A stretch of DNA of 64,000 nt. Source: Narcine bancroftii (Eukaryota). The position numbers were made by a program, and so were the translations under genes. The stretch spans positions 280,364,001 to 280,428,000 of the forward strand of contig NC_091469.1 in assembly GCF_036971445.1 (NCBI RefSeq), read 5' to 3'. Numbering within the stretch: the stretch's first letter is position 1; each line of letters opens with the position of its first letter. The notes beneath the pieces were generated by a model. The model was given only the letters and a program-made list of their open reading frames with translations, did no database searches and was not told where the DNA came from. This document shows positions 1,833-59,378 of this stretch, in pieces.

Positions 1833-2030
1833 CCTTTCTTATTCCTCCATCGGGTGGACATGCAAATTCCCCGGTTGATAAGAGGAAGCAGGGCCCGTCT
1901 CTGGCATTCCTCTCCCTGGTGTTAGAACGAGTGAAGGGGAGGTGATCTTCAGGCGTCAGTGCCTGGTCAATATGAGGACAATCTTCGTTTGCCAATGCTG
2001 CATTTGCTGCATCACCGTTCTGTTTAAAAT
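1833..2030 (-). CDS. KCNC1: KCNC1 exon 3 (Kv3.1b-type C-terminal exon), 198 nt, phase 1/1; not in the ORF track
   Basis: Minus strand acceptor ...tttgaag|ATTTTAAACAG and donor AAGG|gtacgt. Translation (D)[65 protein letters not shown] matches the recalled mammalian Kv3.1b [63 protein letters not shown]. Confidence 0.93.
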
Positions 2031-3159
2031 CTTCAAATATACAAGCAAAAGCTGAATGAAATGCTAAGTACTATGTTTGTGTTTCTTACTAAAGGTTAGC
2101 AGAATCTATGGTTTGTAACGCTCTATGCAATTAACTAAAGTTACTCCAGAGGCAGCACATTCAGCCAATAAAATATTTTGCATTGGCAAATAATATCACA
2201 TAAATATAGTAAGCAACGGCACCAAAATTTGTGATAAATATCAACAATTCTAAGCAAAAGTAACTGGTCTCAGTCTGCATGGAACAGAATGAGCACGATT
2301 TTGTGAAAAAAAATTCTGTAATAGGCTGATGGATGAAGATCTAGAGATGCTTCTGTGATTCATAAGTTCTTAAGGGGATGCTTTGATGCAGTCTCTGACA
2401 AATGAGACAGCCACCAAGAGGTTTAAATAAAGACTTCTCTGTGGCCACTAGGCTTGATGGAGGAGGAGGAGGGGGGGGGGGGTCAGAGGGGTAGAAAATC
2501 AAGTTAACCTAACCATTCGATTTGTCAAATGTTGAAATCGTAAATAGTCCTGTTCAATATGTTTTGCAGACAATTTTTTAATCATGTGCAGCTTATTACC
2601 ATGTGATATTGGGAAGCAATAGTCCGATCTGTTTGCCACAGACATCCTTTAACATAGTTTATTGCCAACTGAATCCAGAGTCATTGCCTTCATAGAAAAG
2701 TGTTAAAGTTACAGAATATTACAGCACAAAAGAAGGGCATTTGGCCCAATGTTTTTTTGCCAGATTGTCGATCAAAATGTCCAATTAGTCCCTAATCCCA
2801 TAATACTGATTTCAGATTTTGAATGTTTATACTATTGCCAAATAAAACAAAGAAGTAGCAAAAATCTCTTTATGAAAAATGAAAAATATAATTCTAACAG
2901 CAACACTGTTCCCTATTAATTTTCCTCCCAAAGAACTACACCCTGTTATCCCTTTTTTAAAAATTCTCATTTGCAACTACTGTATCTTTTAACTCGATGC
3001 ATCAAAATGCATCGAAGTGCATCAGCCTAGAAAACATTACGCTTGGAAAGGTAAGTGAAACAAGTCGTCAACAGCAAGCCAACATAAATTTCAGTTAAGA
3101 AACCATTGCTTCAAACTTTCCAATACCCAAGACATCAGGCATTGAGCAAAGAGCCTTGC

Positions 3160-4340
3160 GTTATAAATATGCTAAATTTACAAATGATGCTAAGCTGCAT
3201 GGCGATGCAGGCTGTGATAAAGATTTCAAGAGGCTTCAGGGTGACTTGGATAGATTAGGAGAGTGGGAAAATATTTGTCAGATGCAGTATAATGCAGACA
3301 AATATGAGACTATCCACTTTGGTGGCAACAATAGGAAGGCAGATTATTATCTGAATGATGAGAAATTAGGAAAAGAGGAAGTACAATGAGATTTGGATGG
3401 TGCCTCATTTATTGAAGATTGCTTGCTGTCAGGGTGTAGCCAGGTTCTAAAGTTAGGGGGAGTGAGCACATTAAAAAAAAGGTCCCATGACACATACCAG
3501 ATGGTGAGTCAGTGGTTGAGTGGCAGGCCGCACTGATTTTTCGGCAGCATCGGACTGGGTAGGAGGGTGGTGGCAGTGGTGTCAGACCAGGTTTGGGGGG
3601 GGGGGGGGTAGAAGGCACCTCTTATGAATTTTGTGTTTGGGGGGAAGCTTTTGCTCTCCCTGCAGCCCCCCCCCCCCCCTTCCCTATCTCTGCCACTGCC
3701 TGCTGTATCTGCATCCCAATAAAAAGAGAAAATGGCACGTTAGCCTTTATTATAAGAGGTTTTGAATATAGAAGCAGGGAGGTTTTACTGCAATTAAATA
3801 GGGCCATGGTGAGACCATACCTTGGGTATTGTGCACAGTTTTGGGTTCCTAATCTGAGGAAATACATTCCTGCTATTGAGGGGGTGCAGAGAAGGTTCAC
3901 CAGACTGATTCCTGGGGTGAAATACTGATGTATGAAGAAAGACCTGACAGGCTGAGATTATACTCATTGGAATTTAGAAGAATAAGAGGTGATCTCATTG
4001 AGACATAAAATGTCAGGATCAGGAAGATGAGATGCTAATGTTACGGAAGTCCAGAAATATGGGTAACAGTCTAGGGATAAGGGGTAAGAAATTTAAGATG
4101 GGAATGAGGAGAAACTTTTTTTTCATTCAGAATTGTGCATTTGTTGAATATATTCAACAAACTCTGGAGGTTGATGTGTTAGATATATTGATAAGGGAGT
4201 TGGATATGCCCCTATTGGCTAAAGGGATCAAAGAGTACGGAGAGAAACCAGGAACAGGATATGGAAGATGTATCATCAGCTATGAATGGTGGAACAGACA
4301 CAAAGGGTTGAATGGCCTTCTCCTTCTCCCATTTTCTACA
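3160..4340 (+). mobile_element. CR1-type LINE, 3' part of ORF2 plus 3' UTR, degenerate, interrupted by a hAT MITE
   Basis: ORF fragments KFTNDAKLHG...LQGDLDRLGEW...QMQYNADK and LAFIIRGFEYRSREVLLQL...VRPYLGYCAQFW...VQRRFTRLIPG are typical CR1 RT C-terminal motifs. Confidence 0.85.
3430..3698. mobile_element. hAT (Tip100-like) non-autonomous element/MITE nested in CR1
   Basis: Ends cagggtgtagc...ctctgccactg are degenerate CAGTGGCGTAG-type TIRs. Flanks cttgctgt (3422-3429) and cctgctgt (3699-3706) form an 8-bp TSD with 1 mismatch. Confidence 0.7.
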
Positions 4341-8783: not shown

Positions 8784-9749
8784 TCAGATGGACATTCCTC
8801 TAAGAGGTTTCCTACCTGCTCTGTTTATTTCTAAAATCTCTTCCTGAGCGAGTGGGCATGTGTCACTCTGTGTACTGTGATGTGGAGAGTTTACACCAGA
8901 TTTACAATAATTGGGGGATCCCAGCTGGGGCGGTCTCGGTATATGCTTCTTTTTCTTCTTTGGTAATTTTTGTTTGGCCATTGCTAAGGAGTAATACATT
9001 CCAAAATTATTGACAATAACAGGGACTGGCATAGCAATGGTCAGCACGCCCGAAAGAGCACAGAGGGCTCCTACCAACATGCCCGACCATGTCTTAGGAT
9101 ACATGTCTCCATAGCCAAGTGTAGTCATGGTTACTACGGCCCACCAAAATCCAATCGGAATATTTTTGAACTGTGTGTGTTTATCGGCTCTCAGATCATG
9201 GGGGTTAGCACCTATCCTCTCAGCATAGTAGATCATGGTGGCAAATATCAGGACGCCAAGTGCCAAGAAGATGATGAGCAGCAGAAATTCATTGGTGCTT
9301 GCACGCAAAGTATGTCCTAAAACTCTCAGTCCTACAAAATGACGGGTCAGCTTGAAGATTCGCAGGATTCGGACAAAGCGAACCACTCTCAGGAAGCCCA
9401 GTACATCCTTAGCAGCTTTGGAAGACAAAGCACTGAGTCCTACCTCCAGATAGAAGGGCAGAATGGCCACAAAGTCAATGATATTGAGAGTATTCTTGAT
9501 AAACTCCACTTTGTTAGGACAGAAAGTGATCCTCATGAGAAATTCAAAGGTAAACCATACCACACAGACTCCTTCGATGTACATTAAGAAGGCTTCTGTT
9601 TCTGTTTCCTGAATAGTTTCCAACCGCGTTTCATTTCCATTCCTTATAATCTCCGTTCTGTTAACAATTGGATTAAATGCCTCATGGGTCTCGAGGCAGA
9701 AAGTGCTGATTGAGACCAAGATGAAGAAAAGTGAAGCAAAAGCACAGTA
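8784..9749 (-). CDS. KCNC1: KCNC1 exon 2 (S1-S6, pore, proximal C-terminus); read-through to TGA at 8786-8784 gives Kv3.1a, internal donor after 8816 gives Kv3.1b
   Basis: Acceptor ttttcttcacag|TAC at 9749 ([14 protein letters not shown]...). S4 is [18 protein letters not shown], pore TMTTLGYGD, then PVP motif and [16 protein letters not shown]. The C-terminus [15 protein letters not shown] is identical to recalled Kv3.1a. Donor is GCAG|gtagga. Confidence 0.97.
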
Positions 9750-17559: not shown

Positions 17560-20249
17560 GGTGCACTGGCTCATCAAACTTACTCTGCCATTCAATAAGA
17601 TCATGGCTGATCTGTCTGTGGCCTCAGCTGCACTTACTCATCTTTTCCCCATAACCCTAAATTTCCCTATTTTTAAAAAATCCACCTATCTTAAATCTAT
17701 TCAGTAAGGCAGCCTTTACTGTTTCTCTGGGCAGACAATTTCACAGATTCACCACCTCTGGGCAAATCTGTTCCTCTTTATCTCAATCTTAAATATACTT
17801 GATTCTTGGGATTATGTCCCTGAGTTCTATTCTCACCTGCCAGTGGAAGCAATCTTCCCTAGTCTCCTCGTATGTTTTCATGAGATAACCCCTCATCATC
17901 CTCCTAATATAACAATGAGTATAGTCCCAGGCTACTCAATCTCTCATCATCAAATAACCCCTTAATTTCCAGTATCAATCTGGTGAACCCCCTTTGCATC
18001 ACCTCCAAATCCAATATATCCTCTCTCAAGCAAGTTGACTGGAACCTGCACACAGCATTCCAGGTGCAGCCTCATCAGTACCCTGGCCAGTTGCAGCATA
18101 ATCTCCCTGTTCATTAATTCAGTCCCTCCAGCAACAAAGGAGAATGTTCCATTTTCCATCTTGATTACCTGTTGCACCTCCAAACTAACATTTTGCAATT
18201 CAACCACAAGTATTCCCAGATCCCTCAGCATGGTGCAACCTTTCACTATTTAGGGTGGCCACCCAGATTCGAATCTGCAGTTGTCTGTAAGGAGTTTGTA
18301 CGTTCTCCCCAAACCTGTGTGGATATTTTCCAGGTGCTTTGATTTCTTCCCATGTTCAAAAGATGTTCAGGGTCAGTCATGAAGTTGTTCACGTAGGTAT
18401 ATTTGGGGGGGAAAGGCTCGTTAGCAGGAAGGCTGCATCTCTAAATTTAAAATTATATAGTAGTTTGATCTATTTTTCTTTCCAAAGTAGATGCTCACTC
18501 ACTTTACCTGTCATGCACACTCACTTTACCTGTCAATTTTCTCTCTACAGACTCTGTGTCCTCTATACTATTTGCTTTTCCACACAGTGTCCAGCAAATT
18601 TAGATATGCTACACTTACTCCTCTTTGTGGGCCTAACATCAATCCCTGCAGCACTCCAATAACCTCTGATCACCAACTAGTTGGAACACCCATCTATTCC
18701 AACTCTCTCCCTTCTATTGGTTAATTATATCCTCTAACCATGCCAATACATTAACCCAATTCCACACATCCTTGTCTTATGCTGAAGTATTTTGTGCAGC
18801 ATCTTTTTGAACACCTTCTGGAAATCTAAGTAGGCTACATTTACCTACTTCCCTCTATTCACCGCACTTGTTCTAAGAATGATCAATCATAACCTGTCCA
18901 TGCTGTGTCTGTCTGCTGGAACTATTTCCATATAGATCTCTTGCTATTTCTTTTTTTAATGATGGCTATAGTTTTAAGCATTTTCTCAAGTAAAGACATT
19001 AAGCTAATTTGTCTATGGTTACCTGAATTTTGTCCATCTTTTTGAGAAAATACTGTTACATCTTCCAATTCACCAGGACCCATTCAGAAAACTTCGACAA
19101 ATTGCCACAAATGAATCTGCTATAACCACTGAGAGTGAAACACAAAAGTCTGCCAATGCTGTGATTGGAATAAAAAGCACAAAAATGCTGGGCTGGTTCA
19201 GTCCACTGCAATAGCAGGGATCTCCCAGTGACAACCCATTTCAAGTCCCCATCCCATTCGCATGGCAGCATGTCTGTGCATAGTCTCATGCTCTGCCAGA
19301 CCGAGTCCACCTGCAAATTGGAGGAACAACACCTCAGATTCTGTCTGGGCACTCTCCATCCTCAAGTCAAGTCACCTTTATCTATCATTCATATCATGCT
19401 CGCACAGTAAAGATGAGATAGCATTTCTCCAGGACATAAATATAAGTTAGACTAGAATTAAACACATTAAAATATTAAGATGTATACAGTAAAGGACTAT
19501 GGTACACTATCCATATATGTTCTGGAATTCAGGAGCCTGATGGCTTGGGCCCAATCTGGATGGAAAGGCCCAAGTGATATGGTACCTCCTACCAGATGGC
19601 AGAGGGAGATCAGTTTACATGAGGGGGTGTGTGGAGTCCTTCACAATATTTATTGCCTTTTTCCTGCATCGAGTGCTGTAGATGTCCTTCATGGTAGGAA
19701 GAGAGCCCCCAATGATCTTGGAGGTCGGTGGCACTAATATCGACCTCCAGTTTTGGTTAGCCCCCACCACCTTCTATCCCTATTTCTCCTTTTCTCTTGT
19801 TCTCTCTCTCTTTCCCTTTGTCTCCTTTCCTCTAGATCTGCAAACACAGATCCACTTCCTCCCCTGATCAATTCTCACCTTTCCTCTCCTGTCCTCCTAT
19901 CCATGTCCAATTACCATCCTTTGTTGATGGTAATCCTTTGTTGAAGGGGTCAACCCCAAAACATTGGTTATATATCTTTACTTCCTATGGATGCTGTGAG
20001 ACCTGCTGAGTTTCTCCAGCATTTATGGGTTTTTACTGCTATAGCTGCTGCCATTCTTTTTTCATACTCCAGAGAAGCATCCCATTAGCACAGGGTCTGA
20101 TCTAACTTAAGACCCACTAGTTTTCCCATCACTACACCTCACCTTCCATTCTCTCTTTAATATTAATCTTTGGCATGTTACCTATGCCTTCCACTACGAA
20201 GACTGACACAAAATAGTTGTTCAGAGCCACAACATTTTTACATTCCCGA
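17560..20249 (-). mobile_element. Long CR1-type LINE remnant with nested SINE/Penelope/Rex1 fragments; continues at 23796-24174
   Basis: ORFs RDLGILV...LEVQQVIKMENG...LMRLHLECCVQ (17962-18246) and ALNNYFVSVFVVE (20132-20317). The CR1 sequence resumes beyond the Chapaev3 element. Confidence 0.7.
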
Positions 20250-51529: not shown

Positions 51530-52186
51530 CCGTGCATATTTAGAGGAATAGGGGTCTTCAAAGAGAGCCCAGATGCGGCGTTGCCATTTCCTCCACCAGC
51601 CGGGTTTTGCCCCGGCTTCAGGGGAACAGTCCCCGAGGGCGAGACGTTTGGTGTCCAACTCATCTTCCGAGTCCCCGACCCCGTCTCCTCCTCCGCCGCC
51701 GCCGTCGCCATCCGCACTGTTGAGATCCGGAGACTCGAAGCTGTCGAGAGCCTCCTCGGCGTCGCGATGCTGCCGATAAGTCATCCAGCAGCAAGGTTCT
51801 ACGTCGGTCTCATCGATTCCCCAGAAGGCAATCTCCTCCTCGTACAGGGGTCCGCACACATCGGCTGGACAGTGGAGTTTGCCCGTGCGGTAGTAGTTGA
51901 GGATGTGAGCAAACACCCCAGGGTGGCGGTCGAAGAAGAACTCGCCCGCCTTGGGGTCGTAGTCGAAATTGGCGAAGGCGCCGGGCTCGGTAAGCCATGC
52001 CAACCGAGTGCCAGGTAGGGTCTTCAGGGTGCTCCGGTACGTTTCGTGCCTAGTCCCTCCCACGTTTATCACGATGCGATCGTTGTCGTCGCCTTTGCCC
52101 ATCTCCTCGATCAGACATGTCGCGGAGGGGGGTCGCTTTCCTGGTGTGCTGCCGCGGGAGGTGGAGACCTGCACTGAGCTGATCAT
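51530..52186 (-). CDS. KCNC1: KCNC1 exon 1 (N-terminus and T1/BTB domain); upstream ATG at 52186, canonical Kv3.1 ATG at 52102
   Basis: [37 protein letters not shown]...[45 protein letters not shown]...[14 protein letters not shown]. Donor CGG|gtaaga (phase 0) joins in frame to exon 2. Predicted Kv3.1a is 512 aa from the second ATG and 540 aa from the first. Confidence 0.96.
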
Positions 52187-52206
52187 TCAGCACCGCGGAC
52201 AGCGGC
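52186..52206 (+). promoter_or_regulatory. RE1/NRSE (REST binding site)
   Basis: TTCAGCACCGCGGACAGCGGC versus consensus TTCAGCACCACGGACAGCGCC (19/21). Confidence 0.85.
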
Positions 52207-52213
52207 CAGGCAT
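52187..52213 (-). other. uORF MPGRCPRC* whose TGA directly precedes the upstream KCNC1 ATG, in frame
   Basis: Minus strand ATG CCT GGC CGC TGT CCG CGG TGC TGA ATG ATC AGC. Confidence 0.6.
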
Positions 52214-52825
52214 CTGTCCGCCGCACCTCCGCCTTCTCCCCGCCTCTTTCCTCCCTCCGACGCCGACCTTCCTTCGTCTCTCCAGGCTCAGGTTTTAACC
52301 ACCACCTCTCCAGCGCGACTGATCAGACAGCTTCGATATTGATTGATCAGGTGTTGCATTTACATTGTTCGGCTTGGTGCAAGCGAGAGAAAGAAAAGAC
52401 GGCGCATTGGAAGGAGGAGCCCAGACCACTCCGCTCTCAGCCACGCTGCGCAGCCGCGAATTCAGGTTCTCGCCACCACCTCCCCCACCCCCACTCCCTC
52501 CACGCCAACCATCGCCGGGCACCGCGCACGGTCTAAGAAACCGTGACAGCTGTCAGAAGGTTGTTTCTTGAGCCACATCAACAGGAGGGTGCACTTCCAA
52601 CCCGAAAGCCACAACCCAGCCCATAAATAGACACAATTCGCAAGAGTCTGTACCAATCCATGGCATTTCTGAGACTGAGATTATGAAAAGGCAGTGGATT
52701 TCGGCGGAAGGAAAGAATGACGGGTTGGCAACCCAGCGATAAACACAAAGCACAAGAGCAAACGTCTACACGGTTTGATTCCTGTGGATGCCTCATGCAG
52801 ATACGAAGACATACACAAAATGTAG

Positions 52826-52853
<28 letters not shown>
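52826..52853. repeat. (CA)n microsatellite upstream of KCNC1
   Basis: Direct sequence. Confidence 0.9.
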
Positions 52854-57180: not shown

Positions 57181-57859
57181 GATGCCCATTATCAAATTCT
57201 TCTATATGACAAACAAAGAGCCCATGCTAGCTCACAAACCAATCCCATTCTCCCAGTATTTTTTCTTTAATCTATTCTTCCCACATTCCCTTCTGTTGTT
57301 CCCACCCCCAAATTCTACCGCTCACCAATACACTGGGGAAAATTCACATACGCAGCCTCTGTACCTTTGAGATGAGGGCGGAAACTGGAGCACAGGTTCG
57401 AGGGTGAAGGAACCATGCACTCACGGGGAGAACATGTAATCTCCACATCGTCAGCACTGGTGGTCAGGAGTCAACCATTAACCTTGGTGTTGTGAGGCAG
57501 CAGCTGGTAGCCAAGCCACTGTTCTGTCATATGATAAACTGCTTTAAACCAAAAGTTGCCAGATTTGGCTGTATTAACATTATTTGCTTCTATTTAAGCT
57601 ACATTGTCACTTACAATAGTTTCTTTTGCTTTGTCCTGTACAATTTCTCATCAAGACCAAGCCTCAGCTACCTGTTTTCCCCTCTACCTCCTTTCCACTG
57701 GATCACACTCCTCTTCCTGAAATTCGGTGCTTGCCTTGATTCTGTTCCATTTCTAGCTTTGGCCTGTACAATTTTTCATGTTGTCCATCACTCCCAGTCC
57801 ACTTGATACGTTTTCAGCCAAACTGTTAACCACTCTAGATGCTTTCCTAGCCCCCTGAT

Positions 57860-58830
57860 CATGGTTTCCTCTCCTGGTTTATGTTCTCCCCACTTTCCCA
57901 CTCTCCGTCTCTCCCTCCCTCTCCTTTTCAACTCCTCTCCCTCTCAACCCTTGCCCTCTCAACCCCCCATTCTCTCACTCCTTCTGTCAACCTTCTTTCT
58001 CTCCTCTCTCACACCTTTCTCTCTCCCTTTCCCCTCTCTCTCACACCCTCTCTCTCACCTCCTCTCTTTCTCATCCCCTCTCTTCCTCCCACCCAGTCTC
58101 CATCCCTCCTGATCTTCCACTCTCCCTCGCTTGCACTCTTCCTCTCTCCTTCTCTCCCTTTCTCAATCCCTCAATTTCTCCCACTCCCCTTTCTCCATTT
58201 TTCTTACTCTCTTCCTTTCTACTAGTATCCCTCTGTTCCTCCATTGCCCAATATCTACCCTCTCTCTCATCCCCTCCCTCTCTCACTCTCTTACACCTCT
58301 CTCAACCACCCCTCTCTCCACCTTTCTCCCTCCATCTCCCACTCCCTCTCTTTTCTCTCTCTGTTCCTCTCTCCCTCAACCACTCTCTCCTCCTTTCCCT
58401 CTCTCTCCTCTCTCCCTTTCACCCCCTCTCCCTCTCACCACTCACTCTCCCCTCTCCCTCTTTCCCCTTCCTCATTCTCTATACCTTCTCTCTACCTCTT
58501 TCTCTATCCTTCCTTTTTCTTCCATACACCTATCTCTCCCCATCTCTCCCATTCTCTCCTCCCCCCCTACTATTCTCCATCTCTCCTCCACTCTCCCCCA
58601 CTCTCTCCCCATCTCCCCCTCACTCTCCTCTTCCTTCCTCTCCTTCTCTCCCTCCCTCACCTCCTGGCTCTCACTCCTGTTCCCTCTCTCCCCCTTTCTC
58701 TCCCCTCTCCTATTTGTCTCTCTCTGTGCCTCTGTCTCTAAATGTCTCTCTCTATCTCTCACATACACACTCTCTCTCCCTCCCACCCACCATCCCCCAC
58801 TCTCCCTTTCCCTACCACCATCCTCCACTT
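57860..58830. repeat. ~1 kb CT-rich polypyrimidine/polypurine low-complexity tract
   Basis: Almost entirely C/T on the plus strand; the ORFs called here are S/L/P or G/E/R compositional artefacts. Confidence 0.9.
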
Positions 58831-59378
58831 TTTAAAAGGGCTGTTAAACCTATCTATGACCGAGCTTTTGAAATTTGGTCCCTGCTTTTGTTTCAGTATT
58901 AGTGTCAAATATTTACAATTTTACATTATGCTACAGGTGCTAAATAAATGCAGGATGTCATTGCAGGTGTCATGGTGTGGTTGGAAAACAACACTGATAT
59001 TTATAGCAGGGCTTTGAAGGAACACCGACAGTGACGTGCAATGGGGAAGAATCACATGAGTATGGTAATGAGATCTTGCACTGAAAGTGATGAGGTTATG
59101 AGAGATTGCTAATATTAGTGATAATGGGATGGGAGGTCAGCCAATGCTCTTACAGTTGATGCGGGAGATACATTAAAGCTGACTGCCACTAAACAAGAAT
59201 AGTGATCAAATATTAGGATCAAGGAGGCAAGGAAGAGACCATTGTGCTTAAACAGTTAATTACAGCACGAAATAACAGGATAGGAATAATTACAAAAGTT
59301 GGCGATGAAAGAAGGTTGAGAGTTATTAGGACTGCATCAGAGCTCAGAGGCAGCTGGTAATCTTTCTGATTAATTGGT

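Follow-up and report, generated by a model that had tools for sequence, protein, structure and literature searches.

A canonical RE1/NRSE motif flush with a weak upstream start codon in the KCNC1 (Kv3.1) gene of the electric ray Narcine bancroftii

In the electric ray Narcine bancroftii, KCNC1 (Kv3.1) carries at its 5' end a canonical RE1/NRSE motif that lies flush against ATG1, the weak first start codon of a form of the channel with a predicted inactivation ball. The arrangement is probably that of an ordinary REST silencer of the KCNC1 5' end, to which REST would be expected to bind, adjoining a start codon whose weak context is ancestral. REST bound to RE1 elements silences neuronal genes in non-neuronal cells. 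The features of the locus are collected in Table 1, with positions counted along the window, that is, the whole stretch of 64,000 nucleotides that was analysed.

Table 1. Positions of the KCNC1 exons, start codons and leader elements in the window.
Feature	Position	Strand	Remarks
KCNC1 exon 3	1834..2031	-	approximate bounds from tblastn; gives the long form
KCNC1 exon 2 (S1-S6)	8784..9749	-	either spliced at the donor after 8816 or read through to the stop at 8784-8786
KCNC1 exon 1, coding part (ball, T1/BTB domain)	51530..52186	-	inside a CpG island
Out-of-frame ATG with a 22-codon frame overlapping ATG2	52050..52118	-	16 nt before ATG2; -3 G
ATG2 (Met29)	52100..52102	-	strong context, -3 G and +4 G; annotated start of bony-vertebrate Kv3.1
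28-codon N-terminal extension, homolog of the Kv3.4 ball	52103..52186	-	PDB 1b4g/1b4i/1ztn, E=2.2e-6
ATG1, start of the ball-bearing form	52184..52186	-	weak context, with T at -3 and A at +4; the A of the codon coincides with RE1 position 1
Canonical RE1/NRSE	52186..52206	+	TTCAGCACCGCGGACAGCGGC; matches 19/21 bases of the 21-bp consensus; lies 84-104 nt before ATG2
In-frame TGA directly 5' of ATG1	52187..52189	-	reverse complement of RE1 positions 2-4
8-codon uORF, MPGRCPRC-stop	52187..52213	-	same reading frame as the channel; start context weak, with C at both -3 and +4
Second RE1 right-half core, inverted	52214..52221	-	GCGGACAG; inverted repeat with 52195-52202; might fold into an mRNA hairpin at the uORF start

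Gene identity and the N-terminal extension

The product of exon 1 was identical at 219 of 219 residues to a protein annotated for Narcine bancroftii, and its best match in the PDB was human Kv3.1. In a tree built from 38 of the 187 fetched proteins plus two rows from the window, all with their N-terminal extensions trimmed, the window exons were placed within chondrichthyan KCNC1 (100/97), sister to the KCNC1 of bony vertebrates (96/95), and the KCNC2, KCNC3 and KCNC4 proteins of elasmobranchs branched apart from them. Judged from its sequence, the gene is the elasmobranch ortholog of KCNC1 (Kv3.1). An identity as KCNC3 or KCNC4, under which the presence of a ball would be trivial, was rejected by the tree placement. 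The CpG island that contains exon 1 extends from 51530 to 52560, with a GC content of 0.61 and a CpG observed/expected ratio of 0.95. Exon 2 can also be read past its splice donor, in such a way that a 10-codon tail and a stop are added; we take this read-through end to be of the short Kv3.1a type.

The extension encoded between ATG1 and ATG2 has the 28-residue length of the inactivation ball of Kv3.4 and is identical to it at 18 of 28 residues; Pfam gave no hit for the 28-mer. The modulatory residues of the Kv3.4 ball are given as C6, C24, S8, S9, S15 and S21 in the available passages of one source (PMC12184066). The ray ball has Ser8, Ser21 and Cys24 in common with Kv3.4 and differs from it in the replacement of Cys6 by Gln (or by His in others), of Ser9 by Thr and of Ser15 by Pro, and in a net charge of +1 versus +4, the full modulatory set with the charge of Kv3.4 being thus absent. 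As its residues indicate, the ray extension is a degenerate ball of the Kv3.4 type, with a putative role in inactivation.

Extensions of this kind are common among elasmobranchs. As many as 18 of 20 elasmobranch KCNC1-type database proteins, with 11 named species, start at the equivalent of ATG1 and have an extension of exactly 28 residues, counts that rest on the members listed (15 of 80 for the main protein cluster). The two exceptions are a fragment and a whale-shark isoform. The latter, P0072 (whale shark KCNC1 isoform X6), is annotated from Met29 and lacks the ball, which could reflect either a loss of ATG1 or a choice of annotation. The elasmobranch extensions that were compared showed 25-28 identities to that of the window, and a chimaera entry has a 27-residue version with 13 identities. 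For bony vertebrates, all nine KCNC1 rows in the tree begin at the residue equivalent to Met29. According to the passages available from a recent preprint (bioRxiv 10.1101/2025.09.21.677649), the Kv3.1 of cartilaginous fish appears to keep the ball, and a late loss in the Kv3.1 lineage is proposed; these same passages make no mention of RE1, of the initiation context or of a recording of the ball-bearing channel.

The RE1 motif and the presumed leader around ATG1

The motif was scored against the 21-bp RE1 consensus; of its two mismatches, one lies in the linker (motif position 10) and the other in the tail (position 20). On both strands of the 64 kb it is the sole site with fewer than seven mismatches, the next best having seven, and such a match is expected by chance around 1e-5 times per window. 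The published 17-bp degenerate NRSE consensus, NTYAGMRCCNNRGMSAG (PMC4430910, in the passages available), is matched with 0 mismatches, the half-sites appearing in the canonical order, left then right, with a 2-nt linker. A second match to this 17-bp consensus, found at 18075 with one mismatch, was discarded as a chance occurrence, shuffled sequences giving 0.54 such hits on average. In the ray, the site at -104 to -84 is the sole REST element of this kind within 1.6 kb.

A preliminary description of this DNA had placed the first base of a 19/21 RE1 match on the A of the upstream ATG, and this was confirmed, the length shared by motif and start codon being that one base, at motif position 1. 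This position is N, hence unconstrained, in the published consensus (PMC4430910, same passages), and the RE1 abuts ATG1 more than it overlaps it. It had also been proposed that the register dictates both the in-frame TGA and the T at -3, as is borne out by the consensus itself: its positions 2-4 (TYA) can be read on the opposite strand as TGA or TAA only, in such a way that an in-frame stop and a T at -3 are forced in the present register.

A feature absent from that description is the uORF, which encloses RE1 positions 2-21 and ends on the base adjoining ATG1. By the rules of initiation, ribosomes that end a uORF flush with ATG1 would be unable to restart there, but could restart at ATG2. Downstream of it, the layout that allows leaky scanning was found, as a weak first ATG is followed by a strong second ATG in the same frame, with an out-of-frame ATG between them. 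This last ATG, at -16 and with a purine at -3, is common to the ray KCNC1, to a teleost kcnc1b locus (L001) and to a bird-type KCNC4 locus (L002). Some ribosomes that have scanned past ATG1 would be diverted by it, and a model of plain leaky scanning to ATG2 is therefore incomplete. In both ball-coding genes its A is a third codon base, free to change, and throughout the Kv3 family the codon may reduce initiation at the second methionine.

The second, inverted right-half core found next to the uORF has a parallel in the teleost element described below, which shows an inverted GGACAG upstream. An mRNA hairpin over the uORF start was considered and rejected, because a z of -2.1 was obtained only in a hand-picked 51-nt window, the values in larger ones being -1.1 and -0.1.

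Conservation and position of the site in other KCNC genes

A comparison with a close relative was provided by a chondrichthyan-like contig (X15, organism F), the only one among four runs compared to cover the region; this single contig spans all 701 bases, 63 letters being other than those of the ray. Among the differences listed, 40 out of 55, none falls within 52170-52214, where ATG1, the stop and the RE1 are found, and the sort order indicates that the remaining ones would lie near the ends of the compared sequence, outside the RE1/ATG1 stretch. The RE1 alone differs in X15 at 0/21 positions, against 26/213 in the UTR beyond (p=0.07 for the differences listed), and this outer UTR carries indels as well. 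For the uORF, the proportion is 0/27 against the same 26/213 (Fisher p=0.04), a value confounded by the RE1 that it encloses. A single substitution, at 52215, falls within the second right-half core. In the ball codons, 3/84 positions differ, all of them third codon positions and without any indel (deficit p=0.015); two of these differences are silent, and the other one changes Gln to His, as in other elasmobranchs. Taking uORF and ball together, there are 3 differences in 111 nt versus 26 in 213 beyond (p=0.002).

These data suggest that the ball frame shows the conservation pattern of a coding sequence and that ATG1 is really used. The existence of a ball-containing frame after ATG1, as first described, finds support both in this coding-like conservation and in the homology to the Kv3.4 ball. 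The comparison with X15, a single one, also suggests that the register between RE1 and ATG1 is common to the lineage. Given the identity over RE1, stop, uORF and ATG1, the flush register may be conserved across elasmobranchs, a pattern that a coupling between silencing and initiation would predict as well.

Binding of REST to the orthologous gene is documented in mammals. Human REST peaks labelled as KCNC1 promoter appear in at least 15 cell types, with summits at chr11:17756656-17756675 (PMC4055426, Table S2), and one more row of the same table records a weaker peak from HepG2 cells, 4 kb more distant. With KCNC1 c.47 at chr11:17757596 (PMC6549525, in the passages available), and assuming the same assembly for both sets of coordinates, the human summits lie 875-894 nt (around 885) before c.1, and among the peaks listed none is nearer than 593 nt. 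The mouse Kcnc1 gene is REST-bound in ES and neural stem cells, with ChIP-PET sites that precede the RefSeq start by 668 and 701 nt (PMC2573930, supplement); the table of 1166 canonical sites of that study has no Kcnc1 row. Together with the perfect fit to the 17-bp consensus, this occupancy upholds the initial identification of the ray motif as a canonical RE1. Ray and mammals share the motif, the target gene and the general place at the 5' end; by contrast, the ray site abuts an upstream ATG and is found around 94 nt ahead of the methionine that the genes have in common, whereas the distance is around 885 nt in human and at least 668 nt in mouse.

Both half-sites of an RE1 were found in perfect form around 510 nt before the start codon of the teleost kcnc1b gene (L001:300-320), the right one at -520 and the left one, inverted, at -508. 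This element and the ray RE1 have 10 identical bases, and it looks like the ray site with one half flipped, in such a way that the two are candidate homologs; the ray and teleost upstream regions gave no significant alignment between their UTRs. Half-sites in atypical orientation have been described for RE1 (PMC2573930, in the passages available), and the teleost element, with its left half inverted, resembles these non-canonical sites, whereas the ray site is canonical. Just before the teleost start codon, at L001:730-819, there is a remnant of a ball interrupted by stops, and an in-frame ATG at -72 opens a 6-codon frame. Two alignments are possible for the location of a vestigial ATG1 in this gene, and no RE1 was found at its ball remnant or start.

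The canonical RE1 consensus was found in 0/80 of the fetched loci, among which only L001 and L002 read as vertebrate KCNC genes, the remainder being more distant and Shaw-like (three inspected). The combined RE1-plus-ATG pattern gave 0 matches in viral contigs. A table of canonical NRSEs from Xenopus has no kcnc1 row, which may reflect its annotation. From the title of a 1999 study by Gan and co-workers, a negative element is said to be present in the 5' UTR of Kv3.1.

The paralogs bear on the origin of the weak context. The KCNC4 locus L002, identified by its match to bird proteins, is collinear with the ray sequence between ATG1 and ATG2. Its first ATG (aaatctATGa) has T at -3 and A at +4 and is not preceded by a stop, and any RE1-like site in the 2.8 kb carries at least seven mismatches. 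Human KCNC3, as read from a primer, has C at both -3 and +4 of its first ATG and no RE1 in the 12 upstream bases of this primer (PMC11595341, in the passages available). The NRSE of Xenopus kcnc3 is 78 kb away. Upstream extensions annotated in one bird KCNC4 and in two teleost kcnc3 proteins do not correspond to the RE1 frame.

The closest precedent is Kv3.3, whose first ATG has a poor Kozak context with an effect on inactivation (Fernandez et al. 2003, as cited in the available passages of PMC9110028). Like the ray gene, Kv3.3 has a weak first ATG and a second methionine after the ball, a layout from which ball-less subunits can come from one mRNA, according to the accessible parts of the Kv3.3 literature (PMC9110028, PMC2933717, PMC11595341). 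Unlike it, the ray gene is another paralog, KCNC1, in which leaky scanning would be expected from the start contexts and from the example of Kv3.3.

Since the first ATG is weak in L002 and in human KCNC3 without an RE1, the RE1 is not required for a weak context, and the idea that it causes the poor Kozak sequence of ATG1 was not sustained. Weak context and RE1 position were shown to be independent across four other genes. The distance from the RE1 to the shared start (around 94 nt in ray, around 510 in teleost, at least 668 in mouse and 875-894 in human) also speaks against the proposal that silencing and initiation are coupled as a conserved design. A conserved position of RE1 relative to the ATG across KCNC orthologs and paralogs was not found either, being kept in one close species only; RE1 and ATG have thus varied largely independently among orthologs, an outcome that the preliminary description had named as refuting its proposal, X15 being the case in which the register stands. 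In teleost, mouse and human the gene no longer encodes a ball, which left its RE1 free to move. As they are ball-less, the bony-vertebrate genes bear on the history of the arrangement and not on its function in rays. The arrangement is not a vertebrate-wide design, and it may still have a function within elasmobranchs.

Readings of the arrangement and other features of the window

According to the reading that we consider probable, REST would bind to the DNA site and keep KCNC1 off in non-neuronal cells, as we infer for the ray from the motif and from the REST occupancy of the mammalian gene. Separately, at the level of the mRNA, chondrichthyan Kv3.1 would retain the layout with two methionines that is ancestral for the Kv3 genes of vertebrates, in such a way that the weak ATG1 would give rise to a minority of subunits with the 28-residue ball-like N-terminus, and the strong ATG2, 84 nt later, to the ordinary non-inactivating subunit. 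This leaky scanning is presumed because of the start contexts and of the Kv3.3 precedent. The weak context of ATG1 would be a trait of the family, next to which the RE1 would happen to sit flush, being compatible with the inherited pyrimidine at -3. For as long as it stays in place, the RE1 fixes the T at -3 and the stop codon, as the logic of the motif shows; on this reading, the fixation would be a side constraint and not an evolved coupling between silencing and isoform choice.

The locus is therefore mostly known regulation packed into one spot and not a new coupled switch. The binding of REST at KCNC1, the weak ATG of Kv3 balls and the ball of chondrichthyan Kv3.1 are already in print. 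New details are the flush register, the 8-codon uORF that contains the RE1 and the half-inverted teleost counterpart; in a literature search that covered mainly open-access papers, no earlier account was found of an RE1 lying against the start codon of a KCNC gene. The presence of a REST site in KCNC1 of a cartilaginous fish suggests that REST has controlled Kv3.1 from early jawed vertebrates with a mobile site, and the ray locus provides the DNA layout of a Kv3.1 gene that still bears a ball.

The initial proposal can also be put in a weaker form, to which the uORF is added. Such a lineage-specific dual use of the 27 bases in elasmobranchs, as a REST site on the DNA and as a uORF stop and a poor Kozak sequence on the mRNA, appears rather unlikely, and the same holds for its second part, in which ribosomes translating the uORF would skip ATG1 and restart at ATG2, selection at the two levels holding the register and a low share of ball. 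It would agree with the stop and the T at -3 forced by the register, with the intact uORF that encloses the RE1, with the low divergence of uORF plus ball in X15 compared with the sequence beyond, and with the retention of the ball frame in the 11 named elasmobranch species, but the weak context of ATG1 in paralogs without an RE1 argues against it, as does the uORF start, itself weak. In addition, it is by estimate not rare for chance to place an in-frame ATG a few codons ahead of a fixed stop, and the conservation comes from one comparison and is explained if the RE1 and the coding frame are each conserved in their own right.

We regard as unlikely a still more demanding proposal, namely that this 27-nt stretch of sharks and rays is read in three ways, as REST site, as flush uORF and as Kozak context of ATG1, with selection for REST locking a low output of ball, and represents a preserved intermediate in the loss of N-type inactivation from Kv3.1. 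If true, the ball would have decayed under reduced use, and bony vertebrates would have lost ATG1, with the same REST element rearranged, as in the inverted left half of the teleost one, and displaced upstream. It would be a clean case in which the binding site of a transcription factor sets limits to translation initiation, and hence to channel gating, and would suggest a route by which the fast-spiking Kv3.1 became non-inactivating.

That ATG1 is practically unused, the ball codons being a relic or conserved as UTR, with translation starting at ATG2 and the RE1 acting as a simple UTR silencer, is quite improbable. The loss of Cys6 and of three net positive charges with respect to Kv3.4, the further drift of the chimaera ball (27 residues, 13 identities) and the whale-shark isoform annotated from Met29 would fit with it, considering also that database starts are automatic predictions; however, such disuse is hard to reconcile with the restriction of the X15 ball differences to third positions, two of the three silent and none an indel, and with the constant length of 28 residues in 18/20 elasmobranch entries, at 25-28 identities in those compared. 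A chance match, or a site that REST does not bind, would be extremely improbable in view of the expectation of around 1e-5 per window, the perfect fit to the published 17-bp consensus and the REST binding of the orthologous gene in mammals.

Regarding the rest of the window, no neighbouring genes were recognised among the long frames of the 64 kb. A pyrimidine-rich, low-complexity sequence of around 1 kb (57850-58900) gives rise to long spurious open frames, and a (CA)n repeat is present at 52826-52853. Intron 1 contains LINE-like reverse-transcriptase fragments, as judged by their translations only (for example near 3563-3957, 27012-27401 and 30299-30676). A perfect 12-bp palindrome, TGACAGCTGTCA (52544-52555), marks the upstream border of the CpG island; we take it to resemble the TGIF/MEIS/PKNOX dimer motif.
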